Positions 15,974 to 20,599 of a stretch of 64,000 nucleotides of DNA are shown here, in pieces; the first letter of the stretch is position 1, and every line of letters begins with the position of its first letter. Under the pieces are notes generated by a model. It ran no database searches. It was not told the DNA's origin and was given only the letters and a program-made list of their open reading frames with translations. Source of the DNA: Nitrospinales bacterium (GTDB taxonomy: Bacteria > Nitrospinota > Nitrospinia > Nitrospinales > VA-1); contig OZ253496.1 in assembly GCA_965262115.1 (NCBI GenBank), positions 2,368,001-2,432,000 on the forward strand. Reading direction: 5' to 3'. A program made the translations under genes and the position numbers.

Positions 15974-16104
15974 GGTTGTTTCCGGCGAGCCGCCGGGGGC
16001 AATTTGCAATGATTCGTTGAGCCGAGAATACGGTTGCTAGCAGTGATTAAGTTATTGCCAGTTGTACCCCTTCTACCCCTTCTACCCCTTTGTATGTTGT
16101 TCAT

Positions 16105-16315
16105 AAGGGGAATTTGTAGTAGTTGTACCTGTGAGCCCTGTGGGAAGCCGGTTTTGTGTTTTCCACAAGGCTCACAGGGTTTGATTCAGGGCACAATAGA
16201 TCGTTTACCCCTTGGGCTTTTAAGCCCGTCCCGAAGCGCAGATCGTTGTGTCCTATTTTGATTAACCCGAACAGTTGCCTGGGCCACTGAGCCCGCATCG
16301 GCAAGGCTGGGAGAC
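16105..16315 (+). ncRNA. Predicted bridge RNA of the IS110 element (ends approximate)
   Basis: 5' stem-loop 16128-16178; target-binding loop 16188-16254; donor-binding loop 16266-16311; guides match the target and donor. Confidence 0.85.
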
Positions 16316-16321
16316 CAAATT

Positions 16322-17272
16322 ATGAATCAGAAACCCCATTTTATTGGCATCGATATTTCTAAACTCCATCTGGATGTTGCTGACAGCATGACTCAAGAAA
16401 CCTGGCAAACCGCTAACAATGAAGAAGGGATTGCTGGTTTGGTCGAGAGTTTATCCGCCTTAAATCCTCCATTGATCGTTTTGGAAGCCACAGGCGGCTT
16501 AGAGATCCCGTTGGCTTCGGCCCTGGTTGCGGGTCGACTGCCAGTAGCCGTGGTCAACCCACGGCAAGTTCGTGATTTTGCCAAAGCCACCGGGAAACTG
16601 GCAAAAACCGATGTCATTGATTCTCTTGTGCTGGCCCATTTTGCCAAGGCCATACGTCCTGAGGTCAGGAAAATCAAAGACGAAGAATCTCTTGAACTCT
16701 CAGCTCTAGTGACACGCCGTCGCCAGTTGATCGAGATGCTGACCAAAGAAAAAACCCGTCTAAAACAAGCTCCAAAATGGATATGTAAAGACATTAAGGA
16801 GCATATCGAATCTCTTAAAAAACGCTTGCGAAAAATCGATGGCGACCTTTCCAGAACCATCAAAAACAGTTCTGCCTGGCGTGAGCACGACCAGATCATA
16901 CAAAGTGTTCCCGGTGCCGGTCCCGTTCTGGCTGTCAACCTCTTGGCCGGGGTTCCGGAACTTGGAGTTCTTAATCAGAAGCAAATCGCCGCCCTCATCG
17001 GTCTCGCTCCCCTCAATCGGGACAGCGGAAAGTTCCGGGGCCGCCGGTGTATCTGGGGCGGCCGCGCCAATGTGCGTGCCGCTTTATACATGGCCGCCGT
17101 CACTGCCATGCAGCATAATCCCGTGATTCGTACCTTTTACACACGCCTCATCGAAAAGGGCAAACCCTTTAAAGTTGCCATTACCGCATGCATGAGAAAG
17201 TTATTAACGATCATCAATACCATGATCAAAACAAAAACACTCTGGAATGAAAATCTCATTGCCAGCACTTGA
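16322..17272 (+). CDS. IS110-family recombinase/transposase, 316 aa
   Basis: DEDD RuvC-like residues (GID, LEATG, KTDVID); Tnp domain with RDSG serine and GGRANVRAALYMAA. Confidence 0.95.
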   Translation: MNQKPHFIGIDISKLHLDVADSMTQETWQTANNEEGIAGLVESLSALNPPLIVLEATGGLEIPLASALVAGRLPVAVVNPRQVRDFAKATGKLAKTDVIDSLVLAHFAKAIRPEVRKIKDEESLELSALVTRRRQLIEMLTKEKTRLKQAPKWICKDIKEHIESLKKRLRKIDGDLSRTIKNSSAWREHDQIIQSVPGAGPVLAVNLLAGVPELGVLNQKQIAALIGLAPLNRDSGKFRGRRCIWGGRANVRAALYMAAVTAMQHNPVIRTFYTRLIEKGKPFKVAITACMRKLLTIINTMIKTKTLWNENLIAST

Positions 17273-17274
17273 CA
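17269..17274 (+). promoter_or_regulatory. -35 box (TTGACA) of the predicted circle-junction promoter
   Basis: In the circular form TTGACA lies 18 bp from left-end TATGTT (16093-16098), pointing into the bridge RNA. Confidence 0.65.
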
Positions 17275-17289
17275 TTTAACACAGTTGCT

Positions 17290-17355
17290 TCGGGGCATGA
17301 AAGCCAATGAAGAGGGCATAACAGGGGCATGAAACTTTTGGAAGAGGATATCACA
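17290..17355 (+). repeat. Right halves of two nested 40-nt units (left halves TACCCCTTC at 16074 and TACCCCT at 16083)
   Basis: TCGGGGCATGAAAGCCAATGAAGAGGGCATAACA then GGGGCATGAAACTTTTGGAAGAGGATATCACA. Confidence 0.85.
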
Positions 17356-17417
17356 GCCCCTTGCCTTCGGCAGTCGCGTTAGCGTTACTGCCGCGCTGCC
17401 ACTGGCGGCCTCGCCGA

Positions 17418-20072: not shown

Positions 20073-20321
20073 ATGGCGAAGGCATCAGCAAGAATTTCAT
20101 TTGTAACTGCGAAAGGGAAGCGCAAAAAGCTAGACCAGATAGCGGGAGCTTTTGGGACCAACCTTAGTTCTGTTATCAATGATGCGCTGGACCAATATAT
20201 AGATTTGCACCAATGGCAGTTGGCTCATATTGAAAAGGGAGTTAAGGCAGCTAAAAAAGGCGACTTTGCGTCCGATAAAGAAGCGGACACGTTTTTCAAC
20301 AAATATGGGCGAACTTCATGA
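20073..20321 (+). CDS. CopG/RHH-type antitoxin
   Basis: 82 aa, LDQIA...SSVINDALDQYI...WQLAHIEKG..GDFASD; overlaps the toxin start (ATGA). Confidence 0.8.
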   Translation: MAKASARISFVTAKGKRKKLDQIAGAFGTNLSSVINDALDQYIDLHQWQLAHIEKGVKAAKKGDFASDKEADTFFNKYGRTS

Positions 20322-20599
20322 GGGTTAGTTGGACCCGGCAGGCGTTGGATGACCTGCGCCATCTGCATGAGTACATCTCCGAAGAGAGTCCTCAGGCCGC
20401 AGGCGAGATGGTTTCACGCATCCATCAAGCGGCTACTGTCAATCTGAAAGAGCACCCCAGAATGGGTAAAAAAGGACGCGTTCCCGGCACCCGCGAACTT
20501 GTGCTTGCCGGTACGCCTTATCTGCTGGTATATGTTTTGGCAGAGCCTGAAATCCACATTGTCACTGTCCTCCATGCTTCCCGCCGCTGGCCTGATTAA
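20318..20599 (+). CDS. RelE/ParE family toxin
   Basis: WTRQALDDL..YI, PRMGKKGRVPGTREL, PYLLVY, VLHASR. Confidence 0.88.
   Translation: MRVSWTRQALDDLRHLHEYISEESPQAAGEMVSRIHQAATVNLKEHPRMGKKGRVPGTRELVLAGTPYLLVYVLAEPEIHIVTVLHASRRWPD

Follow-up and report, generated by a model that had tools for sequence, protein, structure and literature searches.

An IS110-group element with an IS621-type bridge-RNA layout in the loop of a dispersed 41-bp hairpin repeat of a Nitrospinales genome

The bridge-RNA mechanism of IS110-group elements was described for IS621 by Durrant 2024 (PMC11208160) and Hiraizumi 2024 (PMC11208158). According to the former, the architecture, the targeting of repeats and the concordance between guides and targets extend across thousands of orthologues. 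The latter reports that the donor-loop handshake pairs with target position 7 in IS621 orthologues. Perry 2025 (10.1101/2025.05.14.653916) presents 72 orthologues, of which 18 gave a PCR junction and one exceeded background in human cells in a reporter assay. A precedent for a hairpin in the target is ISPpu10 (10.64898/2026.03.19.712850). A literature search combining Nitrospina and IS110 returned no related paper. The element described here is a new example of this known system.

The window, a stretch of 64,000 nucleotides from a Nitrospinales bacterium, carries at positions 16088-17289 an IS110-group element with an intact recombinase of 316 amino acids and a two-loop bridge-RNA layout of the IS621 type. 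The features are listed in Table 1. An N-terminal RuvC-like DEDD domain (PF01548, E 1.6e-24) and a C-terminal Tnp domain (PF02371, E 1.9e-20) were both found above the Pfam cut-off, and the residues D11, E55, D97, D100 and S235 are unchanged in 20 of 20 aligned homologues. S235 lines up with the 'sg' motif of IS621 in the PDB alignment. All three lines agree with the first-pass annotation, which had noted from the letters that the ORF keeps the DEDD and Tnp-serine residues. The PDB matches consist solely of ISCro4 (E 9e-33) and IS621 (E 5.8e-30), the latter at about 30% protein identity as counted by eye from the alignment. The nearest named relatives are from Nitrospina sp. (73%) and Nitrospinaceae (65%). 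The non-coding left end is long (232 bp) and the right end is short (15 bp past the stop codon), which is the layout of the IS110 group and not that of IS1111. Elsewhere in the window, a small overlapping gene pair (20073-20599) is present that resembles a type II antitoxin-toxin module of the RelE/ParE-like kind.

Table 1 Features of the element and its target repeat (window coordinates)
Feature	Position	Strand	Details or basis
Two additional hairpin-repeat heads of 9 bp (TACCCCTTC)	16065..16082	+	sequence
Outer nested repeat head	16074-16082	+	16065-16073 without a matching tail seen
Left target TCTACCC and left CT core (16088-16089)	16081..16089	+	junction comparison
Additional T within the T run 16089-16091, in the window copy only	16090..16090	+	1/26 left junctions; contigs of X1 and X2
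Right donor TGTAT (16091-16095); -10 box TATGTT (16093-16098) predicted for the promoter at the circle junction	16091..16098	+	
5' hairpin of the left end (accessory)	16127..16179	+	fold; missing from short left ends of distant homologues
Predicted target-binding loop	16188..16254	+	stem 16188-16202/16241-16254, inner stem 16214-16217/16224-16227
Target-loop guides	left 16204-16212; right CCCGAAG 16230-16236; handshake CG 16237-16238	+	homologue covariation
Predicted donor-binding loop	16265..16312	+	stem 16265-16268/16309-16312, inner stem 16281-16284/16291-16294
Donor-loop guides	left 16271-16278; discontiguous right 16297-16305; handshake GC 16306-16307	+	homologue covariation
IS110 recombinase ORF	16322..17272	+	316 aa; D11, E55, D97, D100, S235
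Short right end: -35 TTGACA 17269-17274 (overlaps stop codon), left donor ACAGTTG 17281-17287, right CT core 17288-17289	17269..17289	+	
Right target TCGGG (17290-17294) and tail of the interrupted 41-bp repeat (head 16083-16089)	17290..17323	+	
Tail of the outer 41-bp repeat (head 16074-16082)	17324..17355	+	sequence

A BLAST search of the genome gave 29 matches to the element. Full copies at ≥98.5% identity number 21, of which 15 have an intact ORF (99.2-100% identical) and 6 share a common 10-bp deletion. The other matches comprise a 5'-truncated copy that also has this deletion, two variants of 87-88% identity with broken ORFs, and 5 fragments; the ORF is broken in 9 of the 24 near-full copies. 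A CT core is present at 25 of 26 left and all 26 right junctions, empty sites exist, and no other target duplication was seen. Right junctions read CT-TCGGG in 23 cases, CT-GCGGG in the two variants and CT-CGGGG in one fragment. On the left, 22 junctions read TACCC-CT-TGTATG, two have an extra C, one is located inside the left end of the element itself, and an extra T marks the window copy; four left junctions deviate from TACCC-CT. Excision of 16090-17289 gives back TACCC-CT-TCGGGG, as had been read from the window before, with every string recovered where it was placed, and the same sequence is found empty 28 times in the genome.

The repeats and the element are recent at this locus, since in runs X7, X8 and X11, from three other studies, 87 letters stand in place of 15982-17417 and the whole insert is absent. 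The intergenic DNA at 15982-16064 and 17356-17417 is likewise absent from the related strains, so the locus holds a larger stack of small inserts than two repeats and one IS. A circle junction (right end joined to left end) was not listed in the contigs of 8 runs, and contigs drop rare forms. In run X20, whose RNA nature is a guess, contigs cover part of the ORF only. Three loci have unusual structures. The 5'-truncated copy (G000:C1:2034326-2035420) starts at the left target guide itself, and a repeat head is joined to the guide DNA via an 11-bp match with the left junction. A simple microhomology deletion is the plainest reading of this copy, and self-targeting is possible. At G000:C1:2144618-2145980, a tandem duplication covers the first 165 bp of the left end and is joined at CT to a full copy; this is the sole left junction outside the repeat. 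At G000:C1:2519311-2519437, two left-end fragments stand head to head with a fold-back at the 5' hairpin, which looks like a template switch, and a right-end fragment (2518287-2518402) adjoins them.

The left end folds at -85.8 kcal/mol (z -3.24), and 1 of 200 shuffles was equally good. Across 34 aligned homologue left ends, the four stems of the target and donor loops are paired in 94.3% of cells, and two-sided changes occur at 17 of 26 stem pairs. None of 500 shuffles came as high, and slid controls gave 34-45%. The three-domain fold that had been drawn for the left end, together with the covariation proposed as its check, is thus borne out, with 199 of 200 shuffles beaten and the loop stems covarying. 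The 5' hairpin recurs with altered sequence in the 9 folded close relatives and copies, and the left ends of many distant homologues are too short to contain it. When the RNA is folded on its own, pairing between the two donor guides (16273-16278 can pair with 16300-16305) closes part of the donor loop. The Rfam search of the window returned only a sub-threshold match to sX15, a Xanthomonadaceae sRNA, at 16175-16331 on the minus strand (35.4 bits against a cut-off of 55), which spans the entire bridge-RNA region. An origin of the sX15 family from an IS110 end is conceivable. In this genome, no orphan bridge RNA with different guides was found, all 25 model matches being located at known copies (150 of 377 candidates scored).

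TACCCCT and CCCGAAG had been recognised earlier as target guides at their correct positions, and the left one is to be extended to 9 nt (TTTACCCCT, 16204-16212). On the donor side the register had to be corrected. TGTATG directly follows the core CT at 25 of the genome's 26 left junctions, and the window copy alone reads CT-TTGTATG. The family donor is ACAGTTG-CT-TGTAT. The first-pass annotation had derived ACAGTTG-CT-TTGTATG from circularisation of the window copy; because this copy is atypical, that register is wrong by one base. The reading of the element as an IS110 bridge recombinase whose guides can be read off is well supported. The corrected register gives AT-(CG)-GCAAG (16297-16305) as the right donor guide. 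It pairs with CTTGT-AT of the family donor through one G-T wobble and is out of register for the window copy's own circle. This replaces the earlier pairing of GCAAGG (16301-16306) with CTTTGT through two G-T wobbles; G16306 is a handshake position and not part of the guide. An A at 16301 in relatives removes the single wobble. Homologues commonly carry GCAAG in this guide and not the perfectly matching ACAAG. The discontiguous, nine-to-seven pairing of the right donor guide is the same as described by Durrant 2024 (PMC11208160).

The extra T is not just an assembly slip, since it occurs in read-derived contigs of two samples (X1 and X2). An assembly error is rejected as far as these contigs show, both samples belonging to one study that is possibly the source. 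When the ends of a normal copy are joined, the predicted promoter geometry is TTGACA-17-TATGTT, and the spacer of the window copy is 18. A TA...T hexamer is present at the -10 offset in 34 of 34 homologue junction pairs, a count partly fixed by the CTTGTAT anchor used, and the -35 element lies within one mismatch in 27 of 34. Judged by these sequences, the extra T likely weakens excision of the window copy itself through a shifted donor and the spacer of 18. The copy could still contribute despite its off-register junction by supplying protein and RNA in trans, since read-through RNA suffices for excision from linear copies and trans action is compatible with this according to Hiraizumi 2026 (PMC13626964).

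To compare guides with targets, a set of 82 loci (80 homologues and two own copies) was used, of which 79 were parsed, giving 49 distinct guide pairs with misparsed rows kept. The left guide matches the left target at 4.48 of 7 positions (permuted 2.45; 46 pairs with data) and the right guide matches the right target at 4.42 of 5 positions (permuted 1.47; 33 pairs). None of 20000 permutations, which ignore relatedness, reached the observed left or right agreement. Positions 1 and 2 of the left guide agree poorly (7 and 20 of 46). In 40 of 44 cases (permuted 0.69), the first handshake base of the donor loop forms a Watson-Crick pair with target position 7; no clear pattern was seen in the homologues for the second. 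The left donor guide equals the left donor in 31 of 34; this donor-side agreement is partly by construction, as the junctions were located with donor-like anchor motifs. A further candidate rule, that the base after the left target guide tracks the first right-target base, applies to the variant pair and was rejected in the homologues (10 of 33, chance level). Three related Nitrospinota elements with other guides (L001, L086, L094) lie in a different hairpin repeat, CCCC-CT-CACCCCC...GGGGG, and the right guide of L086 agrees with its target at 5 of 5 positions.

The element inserts into the loop of a 41-bp hairpin repeat that is dispersed over the genome. A pattern search found 249 empty repeat heads in the genome compared with 4-8 in shuffled genomes, and 28 heads are nested. 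The window copy interrupts an inner repeat (16083-16089 and 17290-17323) that is itself nested in an outer one (16074-16082 and 17324-17355); one sample carries one further 9-bp head unit. The 118 empty heads with a CT core continue on the right side with TCGGG (31), GCGGG (30), ACGGG (21), CCGGG (19) or other sequences (17). The main-type element, with guide CCCGAAG, has CT-TCGGG at 23 of 24 right junctions, compared with 31 of the 249 empty heads or 31 of the 118 with a CT core. Counting distinct right flanks alone, 14 of 15 are in TCGGG (P about 1e-5 against a background of 0.375). The first-pass annotation had named copies at sites unrelated to the guides as evidence against its reading; these junctions place the other genomic copies in the guide-matched site.

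The two variants of 87-88% identity, with broken ORFs (172 aa) and a guide that differs by one base (CCCGCAG), are both found in CT-GCGGG, the matching allele. The chance of 2 of 2 in GCGGG is by itself about 0.065, and the pair is probably one event because the right flanks are identical. Strict guide matching is weakened by a broken copy in genome G013, whose guide CCTGGAG sits in CT-TCGGG and pairs only via two wobbles. Copies in the genus-mates G016 and G031 have the guide CCCGGAG, and their right flank is absent.

The repeat pattern is present in 16 of 18 genus-mates and in 0 of 12 other genomes of the order. That the IS110 element moves the repeat is not supported: the recombinase occurs in 2 of 22 (E 1e-40) and the RNA model in 3 of 22. 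The near-complete genome G007 has 88 repeat matches and no match to the element, multi-copy elements being often unassembled. No match to a Y1/RAYT transposase was found in the genome (93.9% complete).

Taken together, the ends, the CT core, the intact ORF, the identity of guides and targets, the many copies, the choice of allele and the guide-target covariation observed here make it very probable that this IS110-group insertion sequence is moved by a bridge recombinase of the IS621 type, which inserts it at the loop CT of one allele of the 41-bp hairpin repeat. The left end spells out the insertion site and the element's own ends, so the element likely moves by the published bridge-RNA mechanism. 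From its sequence, it is probably active. With circle, promoter, RNA and chemistry taken over from IS621, the joined ends would form a circle carrying the TTGACA-17-TATGTT promoter, from which an RNA of about 210 nt would be transcribed. In its target loop, TTTACCC-CT would pair with the bottom strand and CCCGAAG with the top-strand CT-TCGGG. In the donor loop, ACAGTTGC and AT..GCAAG would pair with ACAGTTG-CT-TGTAT. After strand exchange, the handshake pairing of C16237 and G16306 would be with the opposite substrate, and a composite site of DEDD and S235 would cut and rejoin at the core. Excision may proceed by cut-out or copy-out; Sun 2025 argues for copy-out and direct-transfer routes.

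A less likely alternative is that the element has spread partly without circles, by direct transfer of a top-strand junction or by riding inside an IS3-type element. The left half of such an element ends in the 41-bp repeat at 17 places and is followed by the IS110 element at 10 of these. One IS3 flank is common to 10 of 26 left junctions, so the copies are not independent insertions. Circle-free spread would account for flanks that are shuffled and copies that are chimeric. Halves of the IS3 have changed places between copies, and all 7 copies with the 10-bp deletion touch an IS3 half compared with 4 of 15 intact ones (P 0.004). Direct transfer has been published for CazIS110-1 and IS621 (10.1101/2025.10.25.684509). 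However, homologous recombination or gene conversion between near-identical 1.2-kb copies gives the same pattern. On the sequences, the swapping of IS3 halves among loci could reflect piggy-backing, gene conversion, homologous recombination or direct transfer. The IS3-type element occurs in 17 copies (G000:C1:1810365-1811279 and 16 other places), with the 41-bp repeat at the orfA/orfB junction. Three copies read TCGTG in place of TCGGG, and the IS110 element is in none of those 3. The outer flanks seldom match, and target duplications were seen by eye in 1 of 12 copies with both flanks.

Rather unlikely is an RNA-guided enzyme whose choice of target needs both guide pairing and the repeat hairpin, with the CT core in the loop, in the manner of ISPpu10, for which a structural gate has been published (10.64898/2026.03.19.712850). 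All 28 empty perfect 12-mers lie inside the repeat, and the copies with the imperfect left targets AGACCCC and GTACCCC still retain the CCCC-TTC-GGGG hairpin. Sequence by itself nevertheless accounts for the pattern, and the stem-loop of ISPpu10 lies 5' of the core whereas here it spans the core. As perfect sites exist in the repeat only, the genome does not separate guide pairing alone from guide pairing plus hairpin.

More speculative, and in our judgement doubtful, is the wider picture of a bridge recombinase that preys on a 41-bp mobile hairpin and cuts its loop, with single-base changes in the right target guide (GAA here, GCA in the two variants, GGA in the genus-mates G016 and G031) adapting lineages to different loop alleles, and copies inside an IS3-borne repeat travelling with the IS3 and reshuffling the chromosome. 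An element that has become inactive, or one whose protein encodes the site choice, with guide matches that are relics or chance, would fit the broken ORFs but is highly improbable given the 15 near-identical intact copies, the empty locus in related strains and guides that covary with targets across many lineages.

With IS621 of E. coli (PMC11208160, PMC11208158; PDB 8WT6), the element described here shares the DEDD and Tnp-serine residues, a long left and short right end, the CT core and a palindromic-repeat target. Further common features, all predicted here, are the two-loop RNA, the discontiguous right donor guide, handshake pairing and a putative promoter at the joined ends. It differs from IS621 in most of its protein sequence, in its guides and in its longer left end. 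The right target guide here naturally fits all 5 right-target bases, whereas that of IS621 is described as four-base and as longer in some orthologues (Durrant 2024, PMC11208160). The donor-loop scaffold is the same as in the orthologues of that study, and in its supplements an identical 14-nt donor occurs at least 188 times in file 4, and file 5 has 424 occurrences. The target-loop stem and the target of the element were not found in the searched parts of these supplements (files 3 and 4 in part; file 2 outside).

ISCro4/IS622 (10.1101/2025.05.14.653916; PDB 9T56), the best PDB match, belongs to the same family and likewise has a 14-nt target and donor and a CT core. It is reported there as active in human cells, and the element here is distant in sequence and known from sequence alone. 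As in ISPpu10 (10.64898/2026.03.19.712850) and ISPpu9 (PMC12288879) of P. putida, an IS110 element is found in a multi-copy palindromic repeat. Unlike in the descriptions of these two, the target repeat here nests in itself and in an IS3-type element, and the CT core is within the loop of the hairpin.

The suggestion that the element is a candidate new orthologue for programmable recombination holds in so far as it is a reasonable entry for an orthologue screen; its scaffold class and 14-nt donor are already contained in the Durrant 2024 supplements, the mechanism is likewise published, and most screened orthologues are weak in human cells. The genome offers a ready-made specificity experiment: near-cognate sites number about 250, and the main element uses a single allele among them. 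The element adds to the described systems a very probable natural bridge recombinase that shares about 30% identity with IS621, has multiplied to 15 intact copies in a recent burst and naturally has a full-length right target guide.
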